Below are positions 2,073-37,869 of a DNA stretch of 64,000 nt, one piece after another. The DNA comes from Eledone cirrhosa. Its lineage: Eukaryota. Under the pieces are notes generated by a model. The model saw only the letters and a program-made list of their open reading frames with translations. It was not told where the DNA came from and searched no databases. Position 1 is the stretch's first letter. Each line of letters starts with the position of its first letter. The position numbers and the translations under genes were made by a program. The stretch spans positions 77,190,001-77,254,000 of the forward strand of contig OZ024742.1 in NCBI GenBank assembly GCA_964016885.1, written 5' to 3'.

Positions 2073-2711
2073 TAAAATAATAATGCTGTCCTAAAATAAT
2101 AATGATGCAAGCCTCATCAGGAGCGCGTGTTTTTATTGATAATATGAACTTGCCAAATCGTAACAATCTCTTTCTATACTTACCTGTTTAGTATAATATT
2201 TCCTAACGCATCGATCTTTGAAGAGGAAAACCAACTACAAGAACAAAGCACAAACACCAATAGCAGTCAGATGACAGATATCTCTCTTTGCTACCCATCA
2301 ACCATGAAATTCTATTCAGCGACTCTAACTTAGTCATTGACACGCTTCTTGGGGTTGTGACAGAATATACAGAATCACATCGATTGGATTTGTTGTTGTT
2401 TGCAGCAATCTATGGGAGACACTCTGACTATCCAAACCTCACCCTATACATTCCTATTTATAACACAGGATTCCACCCTGACGCAGTTCGCTCATAGAGT
2501 GATTGAATCTCCTCGTTCCTTTTGGTCGTAGTAACCTACCTCATGAAGCAGCTTTACAATATAGGCCTGAGGGGAACAGGACTTTTGTGCCGTCACCTAG
2601 GTACCTTATAGTACTGTAAAGCTATATAATTACTGAATTATATATTTGTTAAACTATAAATTTATTTAAATTTATTTAATCTAATCTTACTCTTTTAATG
2701 ATATCCTTTAA

Positions 2712-2770
<59 letters not shown>

Positions 2771-4886
2771 ATAAAAACACTTGGGTGCATTAGAGTCAAA
2801 CACACTCATCGCATTAGAGAAATGACAGTACAAGAAATAGCTCATTTATTTTTTATTTTTATATCCTTTATGTTTCTTAATATACCACTTACTCCTTTGT
2901 GTGAGTTATGGTGTCTATACGGGATGGGGTCTTCTATAGCTGGACGTAGATACTTTATCATCATTGGCGAATGGATACACACACTCTCTTGAGCTGGTTG
3001 GTATGTGAAAGTTTAGCACGTGATTGATTCTGTGGGTATAGGGTTTTGTATATGTGGGTATATTTGTAGATATATATATTTTTTGTGAATATGTATATGT
3101 GTTTCGATGTATAGTTATATGTATAACACAATTGTTTGTGGCTTATTCGTATTCAATAGCTGTTTGGATTCCTTATCATTTTAGTTTTTTTAGTTTATTA
3201 TTAATATTATTATTAGTTCTCTTCGGTTTATTGATTTTTTAGTTTTCTAATTTTTTTAGCTTATTTAGCCTATTTAGTCCCTTGTCCATTATTATATCTC
3301 TATCTTTATACTCATCCTTTGTCGACTAATATATTTCTATCTTTATATTGATCCCTAGTTGGAGTGTATCTTATTGTCTCCTTGACTAACTAATAGTTTA
3401 ATTTTAGTCTTCTACATCTACGATTAATGAACTTCATTTTTTCTAAACGTAATCTTTGCCTTATTGAATATATATATTATATTTTTATGTTCCTTCTTGT
3501 CCTCCATAGTTTTACTTCTTTCTGTTCCTTTTTGTCCACCATAGTTTTTATTGGAATCTTTACTTTGGATAACGTCAGTCGTCATAACGGAAATTAAATA
3601 TTATTCGATGAATGTATTCGCTCGTTTATTGGAATATCTTAATTTCTATCAGCATTAGTGACTTAAACTTTGTTCCAAATGGAGTGTACCATATTGTTTA
3701 TTTAACTTTAAATAGATTAATTAAAATTAAAAAGGGTTTCGATTCAGTTATTTGACTTTGAATAGTGGTATCATTTATTTTCACCTAACAGTTTGTTGTG
3801 CCTACGCGTTTTTGTTTTTGTTTTGTTTTGCTATAATTTGTTGCTTCTGTCTGTCTTTCCTATCCTTTGTCACTTGTGTGGATGAATATATTGAGTAAAT
3901 ATGATTTAAATCTTTCTCCCCTGCAATTATATGTTTTGTGTTGTAATATTAATATGTAATATTATATTGCTGTATGTATTTGAATTGCCTATATCTCTAT
4001 ACATCTTATGGTATATTTGCTAAACGCTCATTTATTTTTATTTTATTTTATCGGTATTTATCGGTAAATATTTACCTGTTATATTTCATTATGTATTGTC
4101 TATTGTATATTCTTTACCATATATATATATTTTTTTACCATACTTTATTTTATTTTATGGTATTATTTTTTACCCTGTGGTATACGTTATGTTTTTTATA
4201 CATGTTATGTTGACTTTGCATGGTACCTTGGAAGTATTTATGTTTTTTAATGTCAATATTTCTTTGATTTTAGTATTGTTTAATCACACCGTCAGGGTGA
4301 TTATTCTATTATAGTGCATATATATATATATTTATGTTAATATGTGTATGTGTAAATGTGTATATGTGTGTGTATATATATGTGTGTGAATGTGTGTGTA
4401 TATATATATATTAAATTTTATTTCTGTATTATATATTGCATTGTATTGTATATTATATTATATTTTTTATATCTTATTTCTCGGATTATATTACTATGTT
4501 GTATTTCGAGTATTGGACATATATTGTACTTTTAACGTGGCTATGTTAATGTTTGCTGGCTCTCTTGCCCTATAGTTTTTTATGTACCAATGTACCCTAT
4601 TAGGTTTGACACGTCTTTCCTGGATAATTTTCAGAAATATCCTTCCTTACATATTATCGGGTGTGTTATAAATATTATAAATGTTTACCCATTAGTAATA
4701 TAGTGCCCTTTCTTAGTTACCTGAATTCTAAATATGTCGCAACATCCTAGACCTTGCCTCCTTATCCTGTTTATATATTACCTGCATATTATATCTTATA
4801 ATGTAATATTTAAATTTCTATTTTTCTATTTCTCTATTCTTCTGAATTTTGGCTTGTTCTAGCCGTTGATATTTTTTATATTTTCC

Positions 4887-4931
4887 TTGCTCTGAAGATA
4901 CCTATTTACTGGGACGAAACATTGTCAGCGA
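4887..4931 (+). ncRNA. Minimal type I hammerhead ribozyme at a PLE-like 3' end
   Basis: TTGCT-CTGAAGA-taCCTAtttacTGGGac-GAAA-cattG-TC-AGCGA. Stem I is TTGCT/AGCGA, stem II is CCTA/TGGG, the cleavage triplet is GUC. AATAAA and (TA)n follow. Confidence 0.75.
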
Positions 4932-4980
4932 ATAAAGATTTTTAATGTATTAAAGGCTTCTTTGTTGATTTATATAATTT

Positions 4981-5066
<86 letters not shown>

Positions 5067-5139
5067 TGATGGTAGATAAGATGCTTCCATAGGTGGTATG
5101 CCGGTTGAGCACTTTATGATCTTACAGAGCAGCATATCA

Positions 5140-5367
5140 TATAATGGAAAACAAAAAATCAGTGATGCGTCTGAACTCAATTTATTGTGTGTTACAATCG
5201 TTTCGCCGGCGGACAGCTCGAGATTCCATCATTGTGTGGATCTGTCTGATGCTGGAATCAGACAGATCCACACAATGGTCGCGTCTCGAGCTGTCCGCCA
5301 GCGAAACGATTGTAACATAGACAAAATTTAGTTCAGATGCATCACTGATTTTTCGTTTTCTATTATA
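5140..5367. repeat. Imperfect ~230 bp palindrome (fold-back) centred near 5253
   Basis: ATTGTGTGGATCTGTCTGAT / ATCAGACAGATCCACACAAT at the centre, with reverse-complementary outer arms. Confidence 0.9.
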
Positions 5368-5462
5368 TAAATATATATATATATTATTTATTTATTAATT
5401 TATTTATTAAAATAACAGATTAAAGTGTAAGCAAAGAATCACTGCTTTCACACTTAACGAGA

Positions 5463-5934
5463 TCTTCTATTGTTTCTTACACCCGTTAACACGTAGTGGC
5501 TATACTATTCCTGTATTCTATCGATGGTGGATTTATATTTGCACTCCTTTAGATTTATTTTTATGTGTACTTATATCGTCATAATTCCCCATGATATAGT
5601 GATGTTGTTATACTATTCATTTTTTTACGTTTCATTTGGTTACGAAAAGAATATTTTTCTTCGACAATGAGGCTACCCATATGTTCGTTGTAGATAAACG
5701 TACTATATATGTGTTTTCATATACCTCTATTATCCTTAAACGCTCTCATAGTGCTACCGAAAATTATATATATATATATACACACACATATATGTGTGTG
5801 TGTGACTGCGTGTGTGTTTGTGTGCGTGTATAAGTATATTGGGAAAAAGAGGGGAGGGTGAGTGGTAAAAAGAGAAAGAATGAAGGAGAGAAGAGACATC
5901 AAACAAGAGAATATGCAGAAAATATTGATACGAA
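5463..5934. repeat. Right arm of an inverted duplication (partner 766-1287)
   Basis: Reverse-complement match to 766-1287. It lies between two direct copies of another repeat (5293-5468 and 5944-6125). Confidence 0.9.
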
Positions 5935-6278
5935 TCTGGAGATGTCCGCCGGCGAAACGATTGTAACACACAGTAAATTTAGTTCAGATGCATCACTGAT
6001 TTTTCGTTTTCTACTATATATATATATATATAGATATATATTATTTATTTATTAATTTATTTATTAAAATAACAGATTAAAGTTTAAGCAAAGAATCACT
6101 GCTTTCACACTTAACGGGATCTTCTGAAACGGGAGTTTAAATTTTAATGTTATTTTAATAAATATTTGGTCTATGGGTTTTTACATGTTTATATATATAT
6201 ATAATCCTCATCGAGCCCTCTTCGCATTTTAGTTTCCACATGTATTATTACTATATATATATATATATATACACCACC

Positions 6279-6367
<89 letters not shown>

Positions 6368-6624
6368 CTTCCTTGTCTGTCTACTTCTTTCTCTATCTCT
6401 CAATCTACTCTCTTACGTCCACTATCTGTTTCTCTCTATCTTTCTCTATATATATTTATAAATGTATCCGGAAAAAACTGTACGTCTGGAACCCGTGGTC
6501 TGATTTACGCGAAAATTGTTTTATTCCATTTGTATTCCCATTTCAGGGCCAACTTCCTTTCAAAATATTTTCCCATTATGCTTCGTTTTGGCTGCATTAA
6601 ATTACAGACACTCACAGAGTTTTC

Positions 6625-6723
<99 letters not shown>

Positions 6724-6732
6724 TGTGTGTGC

Positions 6733-6771
<39 letters not shown>

Positions 6772-6859
6772 TGTTTATGTGTGTGTGCTTGTTTATGTGT
6801 GTGTGTGCTTGTTTATGTGTGTGTGTGTATATGTGTATGTTGGAAGTGGTATCATGAAT

Positions 6860-7215
6860 GGTGGATATAAAATCAGTCTGCTGGACTTTGCAGACCATGT
6901 TTACGTGTGATGGAAGCAGGATGCTAAATTAAGGGCAAGAATTGCAGGTGCTTTTACAGTAATGCGCTAACAATATTTTCAATTCTATATTTATGCCAAC
7001 TCTTATCTATGGTTATGTATATTGAGTAATCAGCAAAAGAATACGATCGCGAAAACAAGCGGCCGAAATGCGGTTCCTCTAAATGGTTTTTGGAGCCCTG
7101 TTACCCTATAGGGTACATAATTCGCAGATCAGTGTGTGAAGCATATGAAAGAAATTAACAGAACAACTTCATGACTACTGGAGTACGTTGGCAGTCGCTA
7201 CACTTGAGGTGTAAT
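6860..7215 (+). mobile_element. Degenerate RTE-type LINE RT fragment
   Basis: KISLLDFADH resembles the RT LLFADD region. CAAGCGGCCGAAATGCGGTTCCTC reads QAAEMRFL, an RTE C-terminal motif. Confidence 0.55.
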
Positions 7216-8168
7216 AATTCTGAGACGCACACACATAGATACCAACATTACATACATTTATAACATTACATTTCCTATTTTATGATGTACTAAAACTTAA
7301 ATATAAAAACATATTAATATACTATCAGAAAGCAGTTTCCTGTAAATGTATCTCTTAATAAATTCCAGATATCTTTGGAAAAAATGCGTTTAAAATCCAC
7401 GAATTGATCTATAATGATACGCTCTTATATTAAGTAAATAGCTATATTGCATTTTAATATACATCCAATAATTATCGGATTGGTATTAAACATAACATTT
7501 TCTTAAAATTATGTCGATGCTAGAATATACTTTGCATTTGATGCAATAATTAGATTATATATTTGCGGCTAGACAGAAAATATGTTTATCTTATATAAAC
7601 AATAACATTTCAAATATTCCTGACATTTAGTAAAGTAATATTGAAACAGTCCTAAAAATAAGAGCAGGTCTCAGGAATATTGATCCCATCTACCCAGAAA
7701 CCAATGAATTTGATGTCACCGATACGAATCCTGAGCATCTACAGTTTATGTAGATGTAGAACAGACGGACAGGAAACCTGCAATCTAATACATAATTATA
7801 TTACAAAGTAAGCCTCACCAAAGGCATGGGAAATCCTGAAATTCGTGATAAAGCAGATGACACGCTCTTCTACTAGAGTAATTTATCCTACAAACGTATC
7901 AAAAAATCAGAAAGTAAAATGAACGAGCTGGCTAACTCATTTGTAAGATATTCTGGATGCGAGATATGAAAGGTTCATAGGTTTCCAAATGGTAAACTAA
8001 TCAGCAGTAAAATAAATAGAAAAAACGAGTCGGTGACATAAAAGTTATGGATGGAAAAAACAAGTCGAGTGGAGAAAAATTGGCAAATAGAAAAGTATGT
8101 AAACATACTTCAGCAGCGGCAACATGTTGCTTATTATTTGTATATTAGTATTTAAAGGCACACAGAAT

Positions 8169-8282
<114 letters not shown>

Positions 8283-8513
8283 CATATATATATATAAAGC
8301 GAGAAGGGAAAGAAAGAGAGAAAGAGAATTACGAGGTTTTAATGTTTGCAACTGTTACTAGGATCATATAAAATTGACTACTAAAATAATTACCCACCTT
8401 CGTATCTATGTATCTATATCCTTTCTCTCACTTCTCACTCCCTCTCTCTCACACACTACCTCTCTCACAGTCTCACTCTTTTTTCTATTTATATATACAT
8501 ACACACACACATA

Positions 8514-8580
<67 letters not shown>

Positions 8581-8782
8581 CGGGGAAACGCCTTCTCCAT
8601 TCTCTCCACTGGGGCTGTGGGTGGGCCCCATCACGTACCGTTGTAGTTGTTGTAGAAGAAACAGGATGACAATAACTGGAAACTACGTGGTGGGTACTGA
8701 ACATTTAATTAAAGCTGCCTAATTATTTTGACAACGATCTGAATCGATACGTGCCTAAATAACAGTAAGCAATTAAAGTATA

Positions 8783-8840
<58 letters not shown>

Positions 8841-8969
8841 ATATATATATAAATATATAAATATATATAGATATATATGCTATATATGTATATATTTACA
8901 TATACAATATAAGTATATAGACATGAGCACACACACACACATATATATATATGTGTATATATATATATA

Positions 8970-9182
8970 TAATGGACAAATTTGAACAGGAACAAAACAG
9001 AGAGGCAGTACAACGAATGTTTATTAATTTCACGCTCTGGAGAGTGGGGTGGTGGTGGGGAACGACGTTTCAGGCATAAGCCCTTCCTCAGGTGAGAAGT
9101 GTGTGGGAACAGAGTTCAAAGGGTGTGTAGGGAGACATATATCAAAGGGTGGAGAGACATATATCGAAAGGAAACGGTGCGA
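8970..9182 (-). mobile_element. Short PLE 3'-end fragment with hammerhead core
   Basis: Minus strand at 9064-9091 reads CTGAGGA-AGGGC-TTAT-GCCT-GAAA-CG-TC, then AATAAA and (TA)n. Flanked by inverted copies of the same DNA (~8830-8945 and ~9183-9300). Confidence 0.65.
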
Positions 9183-9284
9183 ATATATGTGTGTGTGTGT
9201 GTGCTCATGTCTATATACTTATATTTTATATGTAAATATATACATATATAGGATATATATCTATATATATTTATATATATATAC

Positions 9285-9439
<155 letters not shown>

Positions 9440-10025
9440 AGTATAGAGGCGGGAGGAACCGGAAATCAATCAATGTGTCCTGTAAGCAGTTTCAACCGTG
9501 TCTGCTTTACTCTGATATACTACTCTGTTCCTGCTGTGAAGGTTTATGTTCCTATAGTTCTTACAGATTACTGAATAAAAGACACAGCGGGATATTCTTT
9601 AATATTTGCCAATACCAATATTTTCCTTACAAGTTGCATATATTAGCGTGAGGAGACGTCATGCAGAAAGATTTGCAAAAACAAGTAAAGTGGCATTAGA
9701 AAATATAAAACAACAGAAGAAATCAATAAAACTGAAAAAAAAATATTCATATAAATCTCATCAATAGTTGATCTTAATATAAAGCGCAAATAGAGAAGTG
9801 CATGTTGAAAATAAGATCGAAAGACCGATGACATTGGGGCTCTCCGCATGACTTTCAATTTAATAATATGTGCATTTAATGATTGTGCAAGATCAAACGT
9901 TTATAATTAACTCCATTGTGTGGATTTAATAATGAAAATCAGCTCTGTTATTCCATCACAGCATAATGATGCGCATTAATTTATACTATCGAAATCTTGT
10001 GTTAATTATCCCGAAAGAATGATTA

Positions 10026-10084
<59 letters not shown>

Positions 10085-10240
10085 TAATAACAACAACAAC
10101 ACCAACAATGATGTTAGCAATAGCAATAAAGAAAATATTGCTAAAGATGAGAATGATCTTTTAATTTATTAAGAATTAATATAACGCAACTAAAACAACA
10201 ATGATATTGATACTCCTATTAATGCTACTACTATTACTAT

Positions 10241-10330
<90 letters not shown>

Positions 10331-10578
10331 TTTCTGTATTAACCACAAGGGTTTACATAAAGTAGACATTAAGGACAGTGCCGGACAATACAGGACGGTA
10401 CAAATGGGCATTTCTGCGTGTAAAAAACAAAAACAGAGGATGTAACAAAAAATAACAATGAAAAATTCCCCAATAGGGGGGAGACTTCGGAGGGCCATTT
10501 GTGGAGAAAGCCCAGTAAAAGGCCACAATGACCCTGACCACCAAGGCAAGTGCCCTCTCCCAGTTTTCCACCTTTAAT

Positions 10579-11607
10579 TTACAGATATATTCTCACTCGG
10601 GCCATTCTTGCTTCTCTCACCCATCTTTCAACAAAATGCTGGGAAGAGAGTACTTCCCTCTCTACTCTGATTTTCCTTTTCAAATGAAATTTGAAAAAGT
10701 CAATCAGAGCATCACCGAAGAGGTAAATGCTCGTCATCAGCCCTTTCAAACGTGTCCACCATACTATCTCTTTCCCCATGGCCACCAGACAGATAAAAAC
10801 TGCCTGCCCTTCCCGGCTAAAGGAGGAGGGCGGGGCAATCCTCACGATGGACTTAGATGATAGCCGGATCCGTCCTAAACGCGACAGCAGGTGTTCGACA
10901 TAAACCCACAAGTCAGCAATTTTCGGACACTGGACGAGTGCGTGCAGGACGGTTTCGTCGCCCTGTGCGCATCTTGGACATGCCCGACTGACGGCACCTC
11001 CATGCCTGTAAATTTTATCCCGAACTGGCAAGGCTCCTCGGTAGCACTGCCAGGCCAGAGATTTCTGGAAGTTGTCCATAGGCCCTGGCCCGAAAGTTCT
11101 TCCAAAGAGATTGGCTAGTTGATTTTCGTCGACGCCTAGAGTTTCCCCAAGTACCTCGTCGCTCTTCCCCTCCACTAATCCTCTATAGAACGCCGAGGTG
11201 GAGTTTCCACCGATCACATTGCCCGATTGGTCGAGGGCTGTGAGCGCCTGAAGACATTCCAGTCTCCAGGCGCTCCCTCTCGGTCTTCGCTTGACCCAGA
11301 ACTGCAGCTCCGTCAAGGAAACGAGCTGGGGAAATACGTGTCTAGCAAACGGCGACCACACCTGATCACCGTCGAGGAAGTGGTGGAGATGTCGTAGCCT
11401 GAGCGCGTGCCTGTGCATCATCAGCCACGGCATGCCCAGCCCTCCACGTAGCGGGTGTTGACAACAGATGGACCGCCTGACCATCGGAGCGCGTCCCTTA
11501 CACAAAAAGCGAAAGAGCAAACGCTCCAGCGCAGTCAAGCGAGGCTTAGGACAAGGTACGACGGTCAGGCGGTAGCAGATGACAGACGCGATGTACGCGT
11601 TAGCCAC
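10579..11607 (-). pseudogene. LINE ORF2 C-terminal region with zf-RVT-type CCHC motif
   Basis: GGLGMP motif and CPRCAQGDETVLHALVQC. Confidence 0.88.
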
Positions 11608-11726
11608 CTCCGCTCGACCTTTCAGGGATAGCTTCCTCTAGGCCCATTTCTGGGTGAGAGAAGCCACCCTGCTCGTCACCACGTCCCAGTTTTTGTCCGT
11701 CTGGAGGTCCGGACCGAACCAGACCC

Positions 11727-12638
11727 CTAGCAATTTATCGGTCCGTCCGTCCAGCGTCCGACGATGCTGTTGGACGGCATGGACCTGTCTCTCCAGGTGC
11801 CGAGCTGCAGGCCCACTGACTTTTCCTGGTTGATCATTGCTCCTGTCACCGCTTCGTATTCTCTTAGTGTAGTGCCGATCGCCTCGATGTGTTTGGCGTT
11901 CGACACCACTACGGTGACATCGTCCGCATATGCTGACACGGATCTTCCGCATCCTAGTTCGCGCGGGACGCCCCTCAACGTCTCCAGTTTGTGCAGTAAT
12001 GGCTCGAGAGTCAATACGTATAAGAGAGACGAGAGGGGACATCCTTGGCGGACCGAGCGCATGATGTTGAACGGTTCCGACAGGTGACCGTTCACTCTCA
12101 CCACAGAGCAGATGTCGCTGTGCATGGCAGCGATCCAGCCTCTGAAGACGGGCCCAAAGCCAGCCGCCCTCAAGACTGCCGCTAGGTAACGATGGTCGAC
12201 CCTATCGAAAGCTTTCGACTGATCTAAATTGATCAAGGACCCACCCGTGCCAGGTTCCCTAGCTACCCTCTCTACGATGTATCGCATGAGGTGGAGGTTG
12301 TCGTGGATGGATCTGTCGGGAATGGCGCATGTCTGCGCCTCTCCCACCAGACCACCAACGACAAGCGCCAACCTCTTTGCTAGCACCTTGGCCAAAATCT
12401 TGAACTCTGTGTTTAGCAGAGTTATGGGCCGGAAATTTTCTATGTTATCCCCCTTGTTCGGATCCTTTCTCAACAGTTCCACCGCTCCTCGGCTCACAGA
12501 ACTGGGAATTCTCCCGTTCTTTTGCCAGTTGCAGTAGACGTCCGCCAAGAGGCCTCCGAACAAGTCTGGCATCTGTACGTAAAGTTCATAGGGCAGACCA
12601 TCCAAACCAGGCGATTTACCCCTTGTGCAGCCAGTCAT
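11727..12638 (-). pseudogene. LINE ORF2 reverse transcriptase domain (disrupted)
   Basis: RT motifs QGCPLS and YADD. Continues in another frame. Confidence 0.9.
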
Positions 12639-12698
12639 TGCCTCCCTTACTTCAGCGGCTGTTATCGGCTTTTCTTAACACTCCGCCTCAGTGGCCGA

Positions 12699-14312
12699 GT
12701 AATATGCTTCGGTAATACAGAGATCACAAGATGTTCTTCGTCCATTGTACGGTTGGGCCCTAGCTAAAATATCCCATGTTAGTGAGTGTTCAATGTTGGT
12801 TTTTAATGAGCCAAACTAGAGATGTTGAACATCTGTTGTTAGGGTCTCGGAAGGAAAAAGAGTGCGCGTTATAGCGTGCCTTAGAAGGGTTAGAGGTAGA
12901 CTCGATATAGGAGCTGGTATTCGAAGCAGTTTTAACCGTGCACCTATAGACTATGTTGGGTGTCAGGCAATTTCCATTTAGTGGGCATTCATTAGGGTAA
13001 CGGCAGTTGCAGTTGCTTCTGCGGTTAGTGAGAGTAGAGTAGTTTAATCTAAGTGGGTAGTCAGTGTTAGAAGGATTAGATGGGGGACGTGTGCTACTAG
13101 AGTAAGTATTGGTGTAGTGGCGTGGTGTATTTGATAGGGGTGGTGGTACCGCGGTGTGGGAGTTATACTGTCTTATTTTATGATGGTTACTGAATGCAAT
13201 GTGGCTAGCTAGGTTAGGTGTTGTGGAGAATGAGATTTTAATATTATTTTTATTAAAGAGTTTGTAATATCTATGGTTGGGGGGTAAATGTTTAGATAGC
13301 ACAGAGAATAAGCGTTTAGGGATATTAGTGGCTAGATTAGATGAGAGTGGGGGGTTGAGCCAGGTGATATTTCTAGGCCTATTCCTTCTAGGGGCTCTAG
13401 TTGAGTTGGTAGGGGCCTTCCTAGGGTTATTATTACCTGGGGATTTGTTATTTGTCATCCCATTTCTCATTCCTATTCTAGAGTTGATTTTTAGATTTCT
13501 ACTTGGAGTGGGGAGCAGGCCTCTGCCACCATTAAAATTCCCTGTAAAGGTGCTGTAACTGCTAAAACTCCGGTGAATCTGGCTATATTCTAAGGTATTC
13601 CTAGTTCTAGTGTTAAGTTTATTATGGTGAATTGCTGTGTTATGGCATTTAGGTATGTAGTAAATGGACTGTTCATAACCAGATTCGGAAAGTGCCTTAT
13701 TATAATATTGTGCATTGTTTATAAATATCTCCTCATTTGCTGATAGCATGGAGATCCTATATGAGATAGATTTGATTACTGCTCTGATGACTGCCGGTGT
13801 GTGGTTAGAGTGTGGGCTAATATAAGTGAGTATTTCACCTGGTTTATGGTAAGGGTAATATAGGTTATTGTTGAGATCCAGGGTGACGTCTAGGAATATT
13901 ACTACTTTATGGTTCGGCTCGATGGCGATAGAGAGACCGTTATTATTAAAGAATCTATGTAATTGTTTTTTAGCAAATCAATTAGTGCAATTGTAGATTG
14001 CAAATAGGGTTTCGTCCCTGTATATTGCGCCTTGCAAGGGTTGTATTTCGGCTCTGGTGTTGTGTAATAGGTAAATTGCAACTAAATCGGTGATTTGCGC
14101 AGAGTCACTTGAGCCCATCGTGATGTCAAAGTTGTCTGTTCTGTCTTTTCTAGTCCAGAGTGCTCCGTTGAATTCAATGATGGTCTGCCTAGCCATAAGT
14201 ATGATGTCAGTCTCATTATTGCTTATGTCCGAATTGGTGCTGGCTAGGGTTAATGCTTTGTTGAGCAGTTCCGGGGTTATTGAAGCGTAATAGCTGTCGA
14301 TGTCAAATCTAT
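12699..14312 (-). mobile_element. Naiad-type Penelope-like element, partial inverted copy (RT to GIY-YIG)
   Basis: FDIDSYYASI, FDITMGSSDSAQITDLV, IYRDE, RNITWLNPPLS, CNCRYPNECPLNGNCL, NIVY...SYIEST. Closely similar inverted copy of ~14980-16585. Confidence 0.9.
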
Positions 14313-22653: not shown

Positions 22654-22753
22654 CATATCTATATATATATTTACTCTACGGTTCTTATATATTTGATATA
22701 TATTTATCCTTATTGAGCCCTCTTTGGATTTTAGTCTTCAAATTTATTATTAT

Positions 22754-22796
<43 letters not shown>

Positions 22797-29030: not shown

Positions 29031-30539
29031 TTAAAACATATTTAATGTTGGTCTATATTTTTGAATAAACATATTTTCCTTATTTATTCGCATTTGTTCT
29101 GTTGTATTGTTAGCGCAAAGGTAAAATGGGAAGACTTGGAATGTGGGTGTCTTATTACTTGCGCAAATGTCTAGATGTGCACTTAGTGGTATCTGTCTCG
29201 TGGTTGGATCTCGTAATTGTTGGCGATGAACTGTCATTCTCTTTCTGAGTGTGAGTTTAGTTTGTCCTATATAATCTTCATTGCATCCTTTACATTTAAT
29301 GACATAAATTAGATTTTTTGATGAGCAAGTGAAGTGATTTTTTACAGTAAAATTTTGTCCTGATTTAAATGTATACGTGTTGCCTTCAATGAGGTGAGTG
29401 CAGATTCCACAATTAGAGCGACCACATTTTTTGATACTTGGTTGTGGGTTTGTGGTAGGTAATTTGGCGTTGGTGAGTAATGTTTTCAGTGATTTTGGTT
29501 GTCTTTTTCTTTTGATTATTTTGTGTGTTTCAAGGGCTTTTTTCATTCTTGGGTTTTGTTTTAGTAGTGGGATGTTATTGTGAATAGTGTTGTAAGCTTC
29601 CGCATTTCTTGGGTTGTGTGTTGAGATATATGATAGAATATTGGACGTACCTTGAATTTGTTTCTGTTTCCGAAATTCATCAATGCCTATTGGTTTAGCC
29701 CTTTCTATTCCATTATTTATTAGTAATAGTGGGTACTCTCTCTCGAGTAGAATTTCCTTTAATTCTTGAAGTCTTTTATTTCGCGTTTCATAATTGGAGA
29801 CAATTGTGCAAATTCTTCTTGCTAGGTTAAAAGGAATGTTCGTCTTCGTGTGCTTTGGATTGTTGGAGGTGAATAGCAGATATTGTTTGGAATCTGTTGG
29901 TTTGTAGTGTATGTCAGTTTCGATATTTGTGTCTTTTTTTAAGATTAAGATGTCCAGAAATGGGAATTGATCTTGGCTGTATTCCATTGTGAATTGGATG
30001 TGGTTATTGATGCCGTTTATTAAGTTTTTGAAATCCTTCAGTTGGTCAAGTGTGTGGGACCAAAGAATGAGGCAATCATCCAAGTAGCGTTTCCAATTCT
30101 CTGATAAATATTTGTGGAAGTTCAATCCGTATTTTGATTTGGACTGTTCATATATCTGGACTTCTAAGTATGCCATGACTAAGTTGGCATACGTTGGAGC
30201 GGCTTTTGTACCCATCGCAGTCCCCGATATTTGCTTGTAAGTATAGCCATCGAAATAAAAAAAGTTGTTCTGTAGGATGAATTTTAATCCCTCGGTGATG
30301 AAGCTTTTGTCTATTCTGTCAGGTATCTCATTGGGATATTTCTCTAGCCAGAATCCTATTGCTTCTAGTCCATATTCGTGTGGGATCGTTGTATAGAGAT
30401 TCACTACATCGAAAGACACAATAATAGTGTCGTTGTTGACATGTTTGGGGAGGTGGTTTAAGAGGTCCAGATCGTCTCTTACAAAGCTTGGTATGTGTTT
30501 CAGTATTGGTTTCAGTAGTATGTCTATAAAGTTGCTCAA
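29031..30539 (-). CDS. PLE RT plus GIY-YIG endonuclease (502 aa open segment; upstream part frameshifted)
   Basis: YLDD RT motif, thumb region, Cys motif and GIY-YIG in one frame. Confidence 0.9.
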   Translation of the reverse strand: MSNFIDILLKPILKHIPSFVRDDLDLLNHLPKHVNNDTIIVSFDVVNLYTTIPHEYGLEAIGFWLEKYPNEIPDRIDKSFITEGLKFILQNNFFYFDGYTYKQISGTAMGTKAAPTYANLVMAYLEVQIYEQSKSKYGLNFHKYLSENWKRYLDDCLILWSHTLDQLKDFKNLINGINNHIQFTMEYSQDQFPFLDILILKKDTNIETDIHYKPTDSKQYLLFTSNNPKHTKTNIPFNLARRICTIVSNYETRNKRLQELKEILLEREYPLLLINNGIERAKPIGIDEFRKQKQIQGTSNILSYISTHNPRNAEAYNTIHNNIPLLKQNPRMKKALETHKIIKRKRQPKSLKTLLTNAKLPTTNPQPSIKKCGRSNCGICTHLIEGNTYTFKSGQNFTVKNHFTCSSKNLIYVIKCKGCNEDYIGQTKLTLRKRMTVHRQQLRDPTTRQIPLSAHLDICASNKTPTFQVFPFYLCANNTTEQMRINKENMFIQKYRPTLNMF

Positions 30540-31782
30540 TCTGTGTGTTTCACATTGTGGGCCCGCTACAATTGGTCTTAATTTAAGGTCTGTGGGGTAT
30601 TGTGTTCACGCAGGCTGAGGTGGATTGTTTACAGGCATCGTTGATTATTTTACACTTGTGGATCTTCGGAAGTCCGTAACGGTTGCTGGTTTTGTCTTCA
30701 AAATTTGTTAAATAATCGCGTTCCTTTTTAGTTAGGTCTTCCTGGTATCGATAAATCAGTGTGTTTAATTTGGTCATTATTTTTGATTGCTGGTAGTTTT
30801 TTACTCTTTCATAGTAATTAGTATTTTGTAAGAGAGAGAACATAGAATTTTTATATTTTCAGCCTCCATAATGACAACAGTACTTCCCTTGTCCGCTTCC
30901 TTAATTATAATGTCCGTATTGTTATTTAGTTCATGGATAATCTCCCATTCCCTTTGACTCGTGTTGGGTTTGGGTTTAGGTTGCGGTAGTTCATGGTATG
31001 GGAAGGTAGCTGTGTGGTCAGAAAATTTGTCCAGAACTCTGTTTCTACCTTTTGTTGTGTTGTAGCTGCTTTTATTCCGTACAATTGATTCGTCGTCATT
31101 CTCCTTGTCAAAGAATTCCTCTGTGAGACGTAATTTTGTTCACGTGACAGCCAAATTTCATTTATAACCAATCAAATCACGTTTATTAAAAAATAGCCTT
31201 CGTGAGCCACCTTTTTTTAAAGTAAAGAAATTCAAACACACACACACACAACACAAGCACACACACACAAGCACACAAATAAACATACATATCTTTACTT
31301 TCTTTATTCAATAGAAAATCTGAATTCTGACACCCCAGCGAACTAAACATATTCACTGAACCAGAACAATTCTCCCATACCTTTCTCTTGACCATTATCT
31401 TTCACTTATCAAAAAATTCTCTAAAAAGGCTACAGAATGGATTTCCAAATAAGGGCACAAAAATTTAATGAAAACTTGTTCACGTGACAGCCATAATTTC
31501 ATTTATAACCAACCAAAAAAAAGCCTTCGTGAGCCTCCTTTTTTCAAGTAAAAAGAAATTCAAACACTCATATATGAAAAAACAACCTGTGACAACTCCC
31601 CCCTCTTATTTGAAGAACTATTGTAACGTGAACTGGCGCGAAATTTATTATAATTATTGACAAACCAATCAAATTACTTCTCGAAAAACCTGGCATTTCG
31701 AGCCACTTTTTCCATATAAAACAAGTAACATTCAGAGACCAACCAGATGTGAGAAAAACCACAGACCCTCCATCTCAACTCA

Positions 31783-31957: not shown

Positions 31958-32052
<95 letters not shown>

Positions 32053-32689
32053 TATATAAGAAAAAGAAGAAATAGTAGTATCCGTTTCATATAAGCTAAT
32101 CTGCGTCTAGGTGAAATGAAGGATAGGCGTAACAAAAAATTGAAGTTAACCAATTTGTTGTAGTAAACGTGGGCGATGGAGTTGCGTAACGTAAATATAT
32201 GGATGATAGAAAATGTGCGTCCGGGTATGGTACATAGGTTCCAATCAGTATTCAACGGTGTAAATTAATATGGGAAATGTACTAGGAAAAACTAGTCAAG
32301 AGTTTTTGAATCGTGAAGAAAATTTAATATAAATTCATGTCTCAAGCATGTTTCAATGCAATTAAGGATTATAAATTAATCCAGATTTCGTAGTCGAGAC
32401 CTTTTTGTATAATAAATGTTTTTTCGAATTTCATCAAACCTTGCCTTGATTTTCCTAGTAGCATGTTCATATTATATATATATATAATAAAACAAGGAAC
32501 CGGAACAAACTAGGTAATAGTTCTAGCATCACACTTGAACGGTGAAGTTCCCATCCAGTTTCTGTTCTTTGCCAGTAAGGGTTGTCTGCAATATGCACCC
32601 TACAGGTGAATTGAGTAACACTGACGCAGGTAGAGAAAGTCAAGCATCCCGGGCCATGGTCGCGATTAATAGAGGGCAATCAAGTGCAA

Positions 32690-33055: not shown

Positions 33056-33100
<45 letters not shown>

Positions 33101-34083
33101 CACTTTGATAATGCATCGTCTTAATTGATCTTGTCAATTAAGAACCAGCGTTACGTTTAGATCTACGTCATTTTATAACAAGTTTCATCTTTACCCACGA
33201 TGCTGTCGCGGACTGAAATAGAAATGTACATTTCTTCTGTACATTTCTCAATGATCTGATACCTTTCAAAAATTATTTTGTGCGAATCATTTTTTAGTAT
33301 ATAATCGCCAATCACTATTTTATTCAGGCAAACTTATTTTTATGTTTGTTTTTTCATCTTACTCATACATAATATTTAAATAAAGTACTCATCTGATTCT
33401 GCCAAGTACATTGAATTTCTTTTTTTTTTTTCTGAGTGGGTTAAAAATATTCAGGGTTGTTATAACACGTATTTCATGATTTTGTTTCCGCGTGGTATGC
33501 ACAAACGTGCCGATATGACCTAAAATACATTAATTGCATAATTATAATGTGAAGGTGAATAGATTTCACAGTGTTTATTCTTTAAAACGTTCATCGTCGT
33601 GTCAGTTTCACTTGTTATATTTTTAAATAGATATTGTTTTTTATCAGGCACACGTGGTTTCACATGTTAAAAATGTACGATGACTTTGGTTCAACATATC
33701 AGCTTATATATATATATATATCTATCGTTTAGGCAATTAAAAACAATCAGTAACTGCACATATTGGTTGAAAGTTGGGGAGTTGTAGAATCCAACTATCA
33801 TGCAACATGATTTTCTGGAAAATATAGTAAATATCCTAAACGGACGGTAGTCCGTTTAGTAATATTGTTGTGGTCGTGTTTTCGTTGGCAATCGTCTGTT
33901 TACGTGAGTACAGCGCGGCTCTACTTTATTTAACTGCGATAAAACTTATATGAGCATGAACAGTAGATCATTACACATCTTTTGGCTTAACAATCTAGAA
34001 ATTTGGTCCACCGGGAAAAAGTTTATAATCAAAGTTTGCTGATAAATCTTGTGTTCAATGAGTGAGTAGTAAGCGTGACGCTA

Positions 34084-34211
34084 AGGGAGGTAATCCAGAA
34101 ATGACGAATTTTTTTCGGCGGAACTCTTGTGATTGTGATTACGTTAGTCAAATGTAGTCAAATCGCCGAATCCCCTCCTCCTAATTGACTACGTCATTTC
34201 TGAACGGCCCT
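34084..34211. mobile_element. ~130 bp MITE with terminal inverted repeats
   Basis: AGGG...CAGAAATGACG (34096-34106) and CGTCATTTCTG...CCCT (34192-34211). Flanks resemble TWA target sites; Harbinger affinity is an inference. Confidence 0.6.
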
Positions 34212-34359
34212 ACTTGCGTCAGTGTGAAACATTACTTCACTTTTCACTGCTAAAATGCTTTTTAAATACTTCGTTAAAAATTTATGTTTATTATCAAAGC
34301 TATTTTTTGTACCAATCTATCAATAGTTTGCGAAAATATAGGTAAACATGTGAGTTACA

Positions 34360-34662
34360 TTTTTTTTAATCGCAACGATCGCTTTGTCGCACCGACTGTG
34401 ACACTGTCTGACTGTCTGTCTGACTGACACCTTTGTCGGACCGACACCTTTGTTCAAGCGGACAACTTTGTGTCACTGACACCTTTGTTCGTGCCGGCAT
34501 CTCTGCGAAACACCGATGACAACAACCAGACCAACATTTCACTTCATTCTTCATTCTACTTCAAGACCGATCGCCGAACGATCGTATCGGTTGCTCTTCA
34601 TATACCAGGTATTCAACAGATAGTTTGCACTTCTAGTATTATTAACAGTCGTGCGATTTTTT
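34360..34662 (+). mobile_element. Helentron/HINE-like terminal module
   Basis: T-run, then AATCGCAACGATCG...TCGCACCGACTGT, a (CTGT/CTGA)n microsatellite, a hairpin at ~34567-34592, the inverted match ACAGTCGTGCGATT and another T-run. Confidence 0.4.
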
Positions 34663-34783
34663 GTACCGATAGGTGCGAATAGTGCGCTATATTTTTGTAC
34701 CGATAGGTGCGAATAGTGCGATAGGTGCGAATAGTGTACAATATTTTCTGAGATTTGCATCCACTAATTTCGCTTAATTAAAA

Positions 34784-35579
34784 ATGATGTTTCGCGGCTT
34801 TATGATCGGCTTATTCATTTTTTCCATGGCACGGAAATGGAGTATTTCCATTTCGAATCAAAACTTTTCACTAAAATCGGGCAATTGGACTGATCAAATT
34901 CACATTCATGCCAGTTTTTACAAATCCATAATTAGAAATGTGGCGAAATCGAATGACCAGAAGGTATAAAAATATTAATTCAAATGTATTTACTTATCAT
35001 ACCAACAAAAATACTTAGATATTGTGTATACCTGGGGCCCGTCAGGGCCAGGTAATGTTAATCGCCAACATTGTTATCTGTTGTCCTTTTGTGAAAGTAT
35101 TGGTGGTTCATGTCGGCTCTAATGATCTGAATCCTCGTCGCACCGTTGGCACTACAAAGCTGTGCAAAGTAATACAATAATTTTTGCCCAAGTATTTTTG
35201 ATTAATCATTTATTTGTAAATTAAGGACAAAGTGCCCACTCGAGGCACAAAACCGGAAAAACAGGGGAAGAGTCTCTTTGCAAGGCTACAGAAAATAGCG
35301 GAAAAGCACCACTGTACACCCATTTTCTACAGTGGTGTCATTCCACGTCCACAAAGTGTAATTGAAAATAAAAATGACTTGGGCAAGAGAAATTCTCGTT
35401 TGGAAAAGTTTAATTACTGCATGAAAGAAATGATTCAAAAATTGAACTTGCCCAATGTTCACAACATTGAAAATTGGTCAAAATTTGACAAATCTGACTT
35501 CAAACCAGATATGATTCATTTGAACAATGTTGGAAATCTTAAATTGACACAAATTTTTGCCAATGTTTTTGCCACCTGA
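34784..35579 (+). CDS. SGNH/GDSL-like hydrolase (esterase), 3 exons: 34784-34963, 35019-35168, 35226-35579 (~227 aa)
   Basis: Phase-0 GT-AG introns of 55 and 57 nt join block I (KSIIRNV), block II (CIPGAR), block III (VVHVGSND), SGVIPR and block V (DMIHLNNVG) in one frame. AATAAA at 35617. Confidence 0.82.
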
Positions 35580-35759
35580 TCCTTGTTCTATGGCTGACTG
35601 AATAATTTTGTGGCTTAATAAAATGTCATCATACTAGTAATGCACAATGGTCATTTTTAAATTTAAATTTTATTAAATAGTTGTTGCTTGCATTGCCTTA
35701 AAATAGTAACAAGAATAAACACATACTTTTTAAAAATACATCATTATCAGTCAAATCAG

Positions 35760-36119
35760 TCAAATGTCACTAAAAGCCAGGTGGTTGATAACAACTTCTA
35801 TAAGATTAGTTGCATGCTCATACATTGGATCAGCTCTCATCAATGGCATTGGGTGTCTGAGATAATCGTGGAGATAACTGATGAAGTCACAAATGAAGTG
35901 ATGGTCTTCCAGTGTGAACAACTCCCTATATCCATTGATATATGTGATGGCTTCCGATTCATAGGTGCATTTTATGAGGAATTCCATGCATCCGATTTTC
36001 AGTGATTCAATGGGCATTTTATCAGAGATGATAAGGTATTTGACCACGTTTTGCTTTGTAAGTAATTTGGAGAGAATCACTGCAGTCAAAGTCATTTCTT
36101 TGCATGGGTTTTTGTCCAT
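35760..36119 (-). CDS. 119 aa ORF with BACK/BPM-C (SPOP-like) helical motif
   Basis: LTKQNVVKYLIISDKMPIESLKIGCMEFL matches the LTxxNVxxxLxxADxxxxxxLKxxCxxFI pattern. TTTTTAG acceptor immediately before the ATG. Minus-strand AATAAA at 35669-35674. Confidence 0.6.
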   Translation of the reverse strand: MDKNPCKEMTLTAVILSKLLTKQNVVKYLIISDKMPIESLKIGCMEFLIKCTYESEAITYINGYRELFTLEDHHFICDFISYLHDYLRHPMPLMRADPMYEHATNLIEVVINHLAFSDI

Positions 36120-36392
36120 TCTAAAAAGTTAAAATGATAAAGTATTACTACTATATAACTTACATCTATTGTTGTAACACCATTGAAATGCACAAGTTTC
36201 ACCAATTCACTATTATGCACTAATCATCTCAAATGCATTCATGATTTACTAGCTTTGTCGTTAAGCCAGTTGCCTCAACTAGATTGCAATTATAGTCAAA
36301 AGAACTTTAAAATGTCAATCACTTGTCAGTAATTCACTATGATTATTTAATTATTAGATAGTTGTTGCTTGCATTGCCTTAAAAAATAGTAG

Positions 36393-37433
36393 ACCAGATA
36401 GAAAAATGTGTACAGCAAAAAAAAAGTAATATTGTTGGAATATAAACCTTTAAAAATACAGGACAAGAAACTAAAATAAAACTTTAAAAGATAGGACAAT
36501 AAACTAAGATAAAACTTTAAAAGAATAGGACAAGAAATTAAGATATAACTTTAAAGAATTGGACAAGAAATAAAAAAATGTACAATAATATTAGTGGCAA
36601 CATTTTTTATTCGTTTCCTGTGCTATGCCCCAGTATCTTCTTGATTAGTGCATAATAATTGTCATGCTCTCATTGTGCGTTGCCCCTGAGCGGTTGGTTC
36701 TGGTTGGGGTTGGTTGGCTGAGCAGTTCTGCTCCGTCAGAATGACCATTGCAAGAAGAATTGGCCGATGCAACTGCAGGTCTCCTCCAAGAATGCACTTC
36801 TGGTCCCGCAACACCAGACGAAGATGTAGAAGACGACCGGGACAAGATGTCGACTCTGACCACTGACTACGGCACCTCCCTCAACCACCGGTCCTCCCTC
36901 CCTCTGTCCCGTCATCCCTCCAGTCCTCCTGCTCCCCCTTCCTGTACCAGAAAGCTGTGGCACGCATTCATCTGGACTGCCGGACTTGAACTCAAGGACA
37001 AGATGCAAGGAGAAGATGGACGGGTTGGTCAAGATCAAGGATGAGCGGGACGACAAGACCGTCCGCTGCTGCTCAAGATCTGTGCTCATGGGCCCATGGG
37101 TCCATTCACATTATGCATGACACATGAGGCGTGTCGCCGAATGATGAGATAGGGGTGTGGTTATGGCCCAATTGGTGTTCAAACCAGGATCAAATGATCC
37201 CCCCGGTCTGACGACGACCTCTGAATGTGGAACCCAGAGCCTATGAATGTGGAACTCGATTTTTTACCAATAAAAATTTTGCCACTAATATTAATGTAAA
37301 ATTCTTTAAAGTGTTATCTTAGTTTCTTGTCCTATTCTTTTAAAGTTTTATCTTAGTTTATTGTCCTGTACTTTTAAAGGTTTATATTCCAACAATATTA
37401 CTTTTTTTTGCTGTACGCATTTTTCTATCTGGT
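36393..37433. repeat. Inverted repeats (36393-36611 and 37269-37433) with ~30 bp subrepeats, flanking a GC-rich core
   Basis: ACCAGATAGAAAAATG...TTAGTGGCAA is mirrored on the right. Subrepeat consensus is about AAACTTTAAAAGAATAGGACAAGAAACTAAGAT. Confidence 0.88.
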
Positions 37434-37869
37434 TATTAAATGTATATAATGTATAATTTACTCTTGCCCGATAAGTTACTCGTCATTTACTGGGGGCGGT
37501 TCGTCCTCTATATCCATTTCTCACTTCCATACTCTCACTCTATATCCTTGTCTTAACAATTCTGCTGTATTCAGACCATGAGAGGGGATACGCTTCGCCA
37601 GATATAAGAATGCCCTAAGAAACGCCATATATCAATAAGGTGCCTCTGCGACTCCCTAGCGTGTTACGGGAACATGCATATAGTACATGCACATGCACGC
37701 GCGCACGCACACACATACACACACACATATCTATTTAATATACTACTGTTCTCTATATATACTCCCTGTCATAGGTATTTCAATTTATTTCTACACAAAT
37801 CTCTGGCAATATAAGTTCATAATTTGATGCTATAAGTATCTGTCCGTTCACTAAAGTTCATGGCTGTGA

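Follow-up and report, generated by a model that had tools for sequence, protein, structure and literature searches.

Gene content and extent of the element

The 64,000-nucleotide stretch of Eledone cirrhosa DNA analyzed here (GenBank assembly GCA_964016885.1, contig OZ024742.1, forward-strand positions 77,190,001 to 77,254,000; hereafter the window, numbered from its first letter) holds at 34084-37433 a tract that was originally predicted to be a cargo-carrying island, broken from a large mobile DNA element and equipped with an ester-modifying enzyme. Three open pieces on the plus strand (34784-34963, 35019-35168 and 35226-35579), read as an SGNH gene, lie here together with a minus-strand frame of 122 codons, termed ORF-B, and a GC-rich segment between long inverted repeats (Table 1). 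These features belong to a unit at 33834-37432 that is very probably one complete, non-autonomous Helitron-like copy, derived by an internal deletion of ~9.1 kb from an element of ~11.7 kb encoding a Rep/helicase (RepHel), and predicted to be mobilized in trans by the Rep/helicase of such a partner through rolling-circle (single-strand) transposition. The proposal of a large-element fragment is upheld in part: the copy apparently descends from a Rep/helicase element of the Helentron/Helitron2 group, however it is a complete unit with both of its ends.

The element reads 5'-TCCTAAACGG...CTATCTGG-3', with a host A at 33833 and a host T at 37433; its real start lies 250 bp to the left of the predicted start at 34084, and its exact end is 37432. 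Ends and flanks were read in 34 of 40 loci, those in which both ends could be located. The base before the element is A in all 34 copies and the base after it is T in 33, the terminal sequences TCCTAAAC...CTATCTGG, with a 5' TC and a 3' CTRR, are likewise present in 33 of 34, and no target-site duplication was found at the flanks of these copies. Homology in 19 of 19 fetched copies starts at ~33822-33854 (at 34002 in one) and stops at ~37385-37456; where the ends were printed, all copies begin TCCTAAACGGACGGTAGTCCGTTTAG and finish ...GCATTTTTCTATCTGG, and the flanks are unrelated and often consist of (TA)n. Because the first base of the element is a T and a host T follows it, AT|CC...GGT|N is an alternative notation for the cut. 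Paralogous empty sites for three insertions (L010, L030 and L016) read ...TATATA|TTTGATA..., with nothing gained or lost; all three insertions lie within a common repeat, uninterrupted copies of which include window 22663-22772 and 6137-6270. The expected empty site of the window insertion is ...GTAAATA|TTATTAAATG.... A frequent landing site of the family is a common inverted-repeat (foldback-like) repeat beside (TA)n, seen at window 6015-6270 and 22663-22772 and in many fetched flanks.

The expectation of a mobile, multi-copy DNA element was borne out. A 34-nt pattern of the 5' end, allowing up to two mismatches, occurs 584 times in the 3.0-Gb genome, and a 28-nt motif of the 3' end occurs 966 times over both strands, with no occurrence of either reversed control; the 3' motif is present twice per element because the inner arm of the inverted repeat is an inverted copy of the element end. 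Among 40 candidates scored out of 739 from a first look, 36 other matches of at least 3.2 kb to the 3,350 bases of the predicted tract were found on many contigs at 94-97% identity, and the mean pairwise identity among 21 full copies is 97.7%. Interior variation was sampled from 20 further, randomly taken 5' ends, all of which belong to copies of at most 3.9 kb: three are of the full 3.6-kb type, seven lack 34108-35396, two join 34106 to 36250, four carry different DNA between 34094 and 36174, and four are otherwise arranged. The absence of a Rep/helicase gene from the window, noted in the original prediction, was confirmed by tblastn, which found no RepHel in the 20 sampled loci either. The stretch is covered at high word depth by contigs from four runs whose behavior is that of genomic DNA, and the loose ends of these contigs repeat the same deletion junctions. 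The window copy is an ordinary dead deletion derivative.

RepHel-encoding relatives and the deletion junction

The partners were reached with a pattern that forced mismatches after the hairpin of the 5' end, which recovered heads with a flipped hairpin loop and a sister lineage (139 hits). The sister elements have the same layout, keep the hairpin stem through a compensatory G-C to C-G change and finish ...CTAGCTAG|T. In the sister elements, what had been taken for SGNH exon 1 corresponds by homology to the beginning of a 221-aa frame leading into the 2A-like motif IIGCVELNPGP, and a genome search with this leader-2A peptide returned a 100% match within a 1,904-aa open frame on contig C13, as well as matches of 68-76% in long frames (323-847 aa) directly downstream of heads of the window's own lineage. 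The C13 copy (L101, sister lineage) measures 11.2 kb from head to tail and has two frames, L101:1701-7412 and 7416-8936 (plus strand). The first, of 1,904 aa, carries DUF6570 (704-840), Helitron_like_N (940-1129, E=1.5e-26, with an HIH motif), REP and PIF1 (1643-1814); the second, of 507 aa, follows one TAA in an A-run (GCATAAAAAAAAAAAG) and carries Pif1_2B, UvrD_C_2 and UCH (PF00443, E=2.2e-10), and Exo_endo_phos had no Pfam match in either frame.

Long copies of ~11.2-11.7 kb share the head (93-97%) and the tail (92-96%) of the window copy. In the own lineage, O_C18 (11.7 kb), O_C2_46M and O_C3_368M have the whole RepHel-UCH region at 59-94% amino acid identity to the sister, spread over several frames. 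A 6.5-kb copy with the exact head and tail of the window copy (L103) has a Helitron_like_N match of E=1.6e-26, and DUF6570 is retained both here and in L104 (6.7 kb), accompanied by Rep or not. Walking outward from genomic copies, as had been suggested, led to these RepHel-bearing relatives. Their open reading frames match only DUF6570, Helitron_like_N, REP, PIF1/AAA, UvrD_C and UCH in Pfam, and no pPolB, integrase or capsid family turned up in these scans. The sister lineage, of which 31 copies are 100% identical over 97 residues and one is nearly intact, is younger than the lineage of the window copy. Heads of the sister lineage are frequently paired on one strand, ~770-810 bp apart, or form short tandem arrays of the hairpin, each preceded by (TA)n (e.g., C1:2165000/2165813, C1:37306464/37307238, C2:369612447-369612567 and C592:177103-178112), as if a full element had a short derivative immediately upstream of it or more than one head were used in turn.

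The RepHel polyprotein of the long copies begins with a signal-like leader of hydrophobic character, after which comes a 2A-like motif, LLIIGCVELNPGP (L101:1701-7412; L103:1231-3717; L104:1540-4080; L106). Twenty-nine residues, RTRALILSLLIIGCVELNPGPEFEFNETD, are common to the five examined copies that have the region and to the sister, with NPGS in one copy; the leader ahead of them is merely 54-58% identical between the lineages, which are otherwise 54-75% identical in the region. Motifs of this 2A-like (StopGo) type are reportedly found at the N-terminus of ORF1 proteins of non-long-terminal-repeat retrotransposons, in work attributed to Odon et al. in 2013 and Heras et al. in 2006. The long copies resemble those proteins in having ...GxVELNPGP after a short N-terminal leader of a transposon protein, however here the putative 2A precedes a Helitron RepHel, the usual D is replaced by C (CVELNPGP), and the window copy ends before the motif. 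No paper pairing "Helitron" with "2A-like" was found in the limited literature searched, and in a 2025 survey of eukaryotic 2A peptides, retrotransposons appear only among the references (PMC12338488).

Rep/helicase genes of other kinds are abundant in this genome; a PF14214 search gave 3,704 candidates, and 150 of the 150 scored were above the cut-off. Ten long loci sampled from this set (20 kb each) share no sequence with the window element and were rejected as partners, being unrelated HLE1-type families that end with a hairpin and CTAG|T. No pair emerged when the listed 5' ends were compared by eye with the RepHel positions listed.

The origin of the window copy can be read at its deletion junction. 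Window 34081-34939 aligns to O_C2_46M 522-1360 (93.9%) and to L103 528-1392 (96.5%); O_C2_46M matches window 33834-34939 and then, 9 kb further on, 34925-35730 at 98.1%, and O_C18 matches window 35116-37433 at 95.8%. The leader of the window copy shows 84-86% amino acid identity to long-copy frames of 829, 847 and 323 aa at their N-terminus; in those copies the same leader runs on into IIGCVELNPGP and DUF6570/Rep. The leader of the long copies continues as ...ACAAATCCA|AAAAACG and their SGNH exon 1 reads ...GATTCAA|TAATTAGAAATG, and the window has ...ACAAATCCA|TAATTAGAAATG. What was read as an SGNH gene in the window is therefore a fusion, in frame, of 48 RepHel leader codons with an SGNH gene that lacks block I, and its SGNH piece is the product of a deletion from a long element, not a fresh capture.

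Terminal structures and the left region

The hairpin at the 5' end begins at nt 3 of the element. Some 12 heads (e.g., C18:12546259, C1:19513369 and C1:115313481, and the head of O_C18) have the loop flipped from GGTA to TACC on an unchanged stem. The 13-nt asymmetric terminal inverted repeat (ATIR) is set back by 24 nt from the 5' end and by 30 nt from the 3' end. The sister lineage conserves it, and the inner arm contains an additional direct copy at 36425-36437. An Rfam scan of the window gave no match.

The two arms of the long inverted repeat, 36393-36610 and 37272-37433, are 86-97% complementary, as expected of the inverted-repeat-bounded GC-rich segment that had been predicted; this segment is not a separate unit, however, and its right arm is the element's 3' end. 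In a sister copy the arms are identical at 170 of 170 positions, and the differences between the lineages, including CTGG versus CTAG, are mirrored across both arms. With its final ~160-220 bp duplicated in inverted orientation ~0.66 kb upstream, the 3' end can form a very long stem-loop. All 62 matches to the GC-rich loop in 1.04 Mb of sampled DNA accompany the 3' motif of the family, and neither of two frames of the GC-rich segment has a Pfam match. The loop of the sister lineage (L102:822-1436, plus strand; also the copy at C1:43.59 Mb) holds a 205-codon frame, Cys/His-rich in its N-terminal part and Pro-rich in its tail, that has no Pfam match; its sequence is unrelated to the loop of the window's lineage.

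The left region contains the (CTGT)n tract and the short direct repeats that had been described from the sequence. A piece described as a miniature inverted-repeat transposable element (MITE) is a weak inverted repeat that did not hold up as a separate element: no match outside the family context was found among its 34 matches in the 1.04 Mb, of which 33 adjoin a family head and the remaining one (L004) belongs to a family copy as well. As had been stated, 34084-37433 is free of period-2 microsatellites; (TA)n tracts are found just outside at 33705-33725, 33056-33100 and 31958-32058, and a (CA)n tract at 37704-37727.

Table 1. Features of the element copy in the window.
Feature	Position	Strand	Remarks
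Whole non-autonomous Helitron-like element (predicted)	33834..37432	+	3,599 bp; ends aligned across 34 copies
5' terminus, TC then hairpin	33834..33859	+	10-bp stem CTAAACGGAC / GTCCGTTTAG, 4-nt loop GGTA; DNA fold -10.2 kcal/mol
Left terminal sequence and upstream region (5' untranslated region (UTR)/promoter-like)	33834..34783	+	collinear with RepHel-bearing copies
Left copy of 13-nt ATIR, AGTAATATTGTTG	33858..33870	+	exact reverse complement at 37390-37402
Weak inverted repeat (earlier "MITE")	34096-34202		27-nt arms, 74% complementary
(CTGT)n and 17-nt repeats	34403-34495		(CTGT)n tract itself 34404-34426
Short direct repeats	34409-34495
34/18-nt direct repeats	34658-34741
RepHel polyprotein leader, first 48 codons	34784..34928	+	signal-like, MMFRGF(M/L)IGLFIFSMARK...; truncated ahead of 2A-like motif
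Deletion junction	34928..34929	+	~9.1 kb (O_C2_46M 1349-10434) gone from window copy
SGNH/GDSL-like 3' part	34929..35579	+	FCIPGAR, VVHVGSND and DMIHLNNVG present; block I (IVGDSIIRN) absent
Last 12 codons of SGNH exon 1	34929-34963	+
Intron-like gap, GT..AG	34964-35018	+	55 nt
SGNH exon 2	35019-35168	+	FCIPGAR and VVHVGSND blocks
Intron-like gap, GT..AG	35169-35225	+	57 nt
SGNH exon 3	35226-35579	+	DMIHLNNVG block and stop
AATAAA	35617..35622	+	3' of SGNH stop codon
34-nt direct repeat	35670..35703	+	brackets ORF-B segment; second copy 36351-36384, 97% identical
ORF-B, 122-codon frame of unknown origin	35760..36128	-	180 nt between its stop and the plus-strand stop
Inner (left) arm of long inverted repeat	36393..36610	+	33-nt subrepeats; inverted copy of element 3' end
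GC-rich loop	36611..37271	+	0.66 kb, between the arms
Outer (right) arm, right terminal sequence	37272..37432	+	right ATIR 37390-37402; near-palindrome TGCTGTACGCA; terminal CTGG 37429-37432

The SGNH remnant and ORF-B

Of the prediction of an SGNH gene, the three open pieces and the two miniature GT..AG gaps stand, however they form a deletion fusion; of the ordered SGNH blocks I (GDS), II (G), III (GxND) and V (DxxH), the window copy lacks the GDS block. The complete exon 1 in O_C2_46M reads ...MVVRALLNKNHPQFNYIVGDSIIRNVAKSNDQK, which is block I with the GDS serine; after this exon come the same pair of gaps and the motifs FCIPGAR, VVHVGSND and (D/N)MIHLNNVG. IVGDSIIRN is retained in long or L025-type copies, and the full exon 1 is seen at L112:296-478. 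When all 10 candidates for the true exon 1 were scored, seven genomic matches were obtained, and all seven lie within family elements; this exon 1 search found no free host copy or host parent of the gene in the genome. A complete SGNH-like gene, with the GDS block and both mini-introns, is present in seven copies (L112:296-1090, equal to C2:46822703-46823497, L025, L026 and L115-L118). The esterase-like cargo gene thus belongs to the large element as proposed, however the deletion at 34928|34929 has deprived the window copy of the block with the catalytic serine, and the truncated fusion is likely no longer enzymatically working.

The SGNH identity of the gene is suggested by its ordered motifs together with sub-threshold matches. 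The last plus-strand piece has a weak GDSL-like match in Pfam (E=0.0027); the read-through of the window gene, with X at the stops, matches Lipase_GDSL_2 at E=0.015 over profile positions 64-176 of 178 only, and the full-length read-through gives a non-significant E=0.029. Lipase_GDSL_2/3 scores fall at E=0.003-0.03 and under the curated cut-offs. The top match in PDB, 4c1b, is non-significant (E=0.34) and spans FCIPGAR...VVHVGSND, that is blocks II-III; this structure is the esterase of the ORF1 protein of the long interspersed nuclear element (LINE) ZfL2-1 (PMC3905857). Atlas feature matches of the SGNH part are to unnamed eukaryotic clusters (0.96 and 0.93) and to bacterial GDSL clusters (0.90-0.92), word-index searches for relatives of the SGNH part found none, and a single-sequence AlphaFold2 (AF2) model of the read-through was too poor for a fold search (pLDDT 33). 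No joint across the two intron-like gaps was found in the contigs of the four genomic-DNA-like runs. An idea in which the leader and 2A-like motif were the captured 5' end of a LINE ORF1 and CIPGAR a decayed 2A was dropped, since the leader is the RepHel N-terminus and CIPGAR aligns to block II of the LINE esterase.

ORF-B was described as a convergent BACK-like frame, and the minus-strand frame with its 180 nt between stops is indeed present; neither the BACK assignment nor the suggested cullin-3-adaptor domain found any backing, with no Pfam family at E<=1, no phmmer hit among 1.84 billion representatives and no PDB match. Its Atlas recognition value of 2035 lies under 2300, the Atlas matches are incoherent and unrelated to BTB/BACK, and a single-sequence AF2 model reached pLDDT 42, too poor for a fold search. 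ORF-B is present at 92-94% in long copies of the own lineage; in the sister lineage neither the SGNH exons nor ORF-B were found. Loose ends of contigs from the DNA runs include a variant in which 35703 is joined to ~36385.

Classification and comparison with known systems

The family is probably a member of the Helitron2/Helentron (HLE2) group with an atypical A^T target and a CTRR-like end, given the DUF6570 and UCH markers and the architecture of its ends (5' hairpin and 13-nt ATIR), a placement that stands on marker domains and end architecture. The partner has no endonuclease domain and would therefore be Helitron2-like within the group. DUF6570 is reported to be an HLE2-specific marker and UCH to be almost confined to that clade, and HLE1 elements are described with a 5' TC, a 3' CTRR and an A^T target without duplication (HELIANO survey, PMC11417382). 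Helitron2 is characterized by a 5'-end hairpin together with asymmetric terminal inverted repeats (PMC5148889). For the Helentron-derived HINEs, the subterminal repeats are described as palindromic and situated 2-4 nt from the 5' end, and a short palindrome as situated 8-35 nt from the 3' end (PMC4067079). The present family has a short asymmetric inverted repeat (AGTAATATTGTTG, 13 nt against the 11-18 nt of HLE2) and a palindrome at the 5' end, as in HLE2; its target is A^T, mostly within (TA)n, and not the T-T or T-rich target of that group. The strong hairpin is a feature of the 5' end, whereas HLE1 has its hairpin 10-12 nt from the 3' end, and the AP-endonuclease fusion of Helentrons proper is lacking. 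Two traits of any Helitron group are present, namely insertion without duplication and terminal sequences common to a Rep/helicase element.

The window copy resembles HINEs and DINE-1-type derivatives of HLE2 (PMC4067079, PMC5148889, PMC11417382) as a deletion derivative with both termini as in its RepHel partner, a palindrome 2 nt from the 5' end, a 13-nt inverted repeat, a short palindrome ~14 nt before the 3' end, tandem repeats in the interior, no target duplication and a partner with DUF6570 and UCH. It differs from them in inserting at A^T, mostly in (TA)n, and not at T-T or T-rich targets, in its TC...CTGG ends, in the giant 3' stem-loop formed by the inverted end duplication and in a partner without endonuclease. 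With non-autonomous HLE1 elements it shares TC, CTRR, A^T, the lack of a target-site duplication, gene-like cargo, hundreds of copies and variable interiors, however this family has its strong hairpin at the 5' end and possesses an ATIR, and the partner RepHel carries HLE2 markers. The closest description among those compared is that of the proto-Helentron of Phytophthora, which combines HLE1-like ends and target with an HLE2-side transposase (compared by description only; PMC11417382, PMC4067079); proto-Helentrons are reported from oomycetes only, whereas the host genome here is large, AT-rich and repeat-rich.

An association of SGNH hydrolase genes with Helitrons is known from teleost fish as texim (Tomaszkiewicz et al. 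2014, PMC4021074), and in both cases an intron-containing gene of SGNH type accompanies a Helitron. Texim proteins are reported to be related to esterases of CR1 retrotransposons (PMC4021074), and the top, non-significant PDB match here is the ORF1 esterase of ZfL2-1, of the CR1 clade. The coding region of the fish Helitron is located 3' to texim or within the last texim intron (PMC4021074), whereas in this family, likened to texim by description only, the SGNH gene is downstream of RepHel-UCH and inside the element ends, and the window copy is without block I.

Mobilization and alternative explanations

Transposons of the HUH/Rep-helicase type move by nicking, unwinding and reinsertion of a strand. 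In the present family, a RepHel from a long copy would nick at the 5' TC beside the terminal hairpin, unwind the strand to the 3' end and reinsert it at A^T, mostly in (TA)n tracts, with the 5' hairpin, the 13-nt ATIR and the long 3' inverted repeat as candidate recognition signals. The 3.6-kb copy would be carried along because both of its ends are kept, and its SGNH remnant and ORF-B are presumably functionless passengers. A more far-reaching reading, which we regard as rather improbable, would see here an undescribed lineage of the Helitron2 clade with A^T targets and TC...CTRR ends, a RepHel-UCH behind a signal-like leader and a working 2A/StopGo, and its own intron-containing, LINE-ORF1-related esterase serving transposition, which would constitute a second Helitron-SGNH partnership independent of texim.

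Several observations weigh against the reading as a trans-mobilized deletion derivative of an HLE2-group element, beyond the basis of the group placement given above. The A^T target and the CTGG 3' end are traits of canonical Helitrons (HLE1) and not of HLE2, for which T-T is reported, and the insertion is equally readable as AT|CC...GGT|N, two readings that the data cannot separate. The 3' palindrome is short and weak (a 3-bp stem TGC..GCA, -1.2 kcal/mol, ~14 nt from the end). The RepHel frame is broken or truncated in five of the five long copies of the own lineage (O_C18, O_C2_46M, O_C3_368M, L103 and L104), and that of the best sister copy has one in-frame TAA. Among 33 copies, shared variants number 8, 8 and 15 at codon positions 1, 2 and 3, which is no significant third-position excess and no clear selection on the SGNH part.

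The terminal traits would fit a canonical non-autonomous HLE1 Helitron that captured host gene fragments, namely an SGNH gene with introns and an unrelated frame: TC, CTGG (a form of CTRR, and CTAG in the sister) and A^T without duplication define HLE1, the genome is full of HLE1-type RepHel genes (the 3,704 candidates noted above, with 150 of 150 scored passing), and the two GT..AG gaps are as in a captured host gene. This account is nevertheless unlikely. Four abundant RepHel families that were scanned have neither DUF6570 nor UCH, and one of them carries STPRs, an HLE1-linked domain; their Helitron_like_N scores are 190-210 bits versus 94 bits in the partner, which has both DUF6570 and UCH and whose RepHel is only 20-30% identical to these HLE1-type families of its own genome. 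The location of the strong hairpin at the 5' terminus in place of one 10-12 nt from the 3' end and the 13-nt ATIR also speak against it, as do the ten abundant RepHel loci that share nothing with the element and the arrival of the SGNH piece by deletion. It is less likely still that the leader-SGNH fusion, perhaps together with ORF-B, is a working gene spread by the element, e.g., a non-catalytic SGNH-fold protein of use to the transposon or host. In its favor are the in-frame junction at 34928|34929, the AATAAA after the stop, the state of the gene in the 33 copies (exon 2 open in 31, exon 3 in 27, both GT..AG pairs kept in 30) and the testis expression reported for the Helitron-associated texim of fish (PMC4021074). 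Open frames are, however, expected without selection in copies this young (97.7%), singleton changes are equally dense (0.15-0.20) at codon positions 1, 2 and 3, in the introns and in the UTR, the block with the GDS nucleophile is deleted, and the commonest sampled subtype (7 of 20) is without most of the gene.

A mosaic, in which the 1-kb inverted-repeat GC-rich segment is a separate terminal-inverted-repeat or foldback transposon and the MITE a further nested insertion, would account for inverted repeats of ~160-220 bp with 33-nt subrepeats that resemble foldback elements and for the occurrence of the end motif genome-wide in (-,+) pairs ~1 kb apart. Sixteen such pairs without a listed perfect head were sampled: 13 have a family head upstream, the remaining three are 5'-truncated family copies, and a solitary 1-kb unit was found in none of the 16. 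The outer arm is moreover the exact end of units of 3.6, 2.4, 1.5 and 11.7 kb, and the MITE-like piece and the loop were seen only in family context in the 1.04 Mb, so that a mosaic is highly improbable; the independent occurrence of the parts that had been named as a refutation was thus not encountered for the MITE or the inverted-repeat segment, neither of which stands alone in the samples. The suggestion that the copy is part of a giant element of Maverick/Polinton-like or virus-like kind deserves practically no credence. It came solely from an earlier impression of gene density, with no tool result behind it, and it conflicts with copies that all end at the same two points in unrelated flanks and with a long form of 11.2-11.7 kb whose frames match Rep/helicase-related domains and UCH, with no pPolB, integrase or capsid family appearing.

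The reading as a dead deletion copy of a RepHel-encoding transposon bears on annotation: the apparent enzyme-carrying cargo island should be masked or annotated as such and not as two genes, and the combination of canonical-Helitron ends and target with Helitron2/Helentron architecture and markers touches on how annotation tools separate the two groups. The family also echoes the Helitron-SGNH association of fish. Non-autonomous Helitron-like deletion derivatives are already known, as is, in the case of texim, a Helitron with an SGNH gene in teleosts (PMC4021074). Less usual are HLE1-type ends and target combined with HLE2-type architecture and markers, the great length of the 3' inverted repeat and the presence of a conserved 2A-like motif before RepHel; these traits concern the long relatives elsewhere in the genome, and the window copy is an ordinary copy of a moderately unusual transposon family.

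Other repeats

Near-identical Helitron_like_N matches recur every ~100-170 kb at C20:3.54-5.19 Mb, C27:13.07-15.46 Mb, C19:35.4-39.9 Mb and C16:0.54-0.80 Mb, most of them with the same 362-aa open frame, which suggests large tandem or segmental arrays with one Helitron fragment each. Elsewhere in the window, a GC-rich (51-57%) LINE remnant on the minus strand at 10579-13977 has RVT_1 (E=3e-29) and zf-RVT matches. A 524-codon minus-strand frame at 29031-30605, lying within a strong GC skew, encodes a reverse transcriptase with a GIY-YIG nuclease, a combination that is typical of Penelope-like elements.

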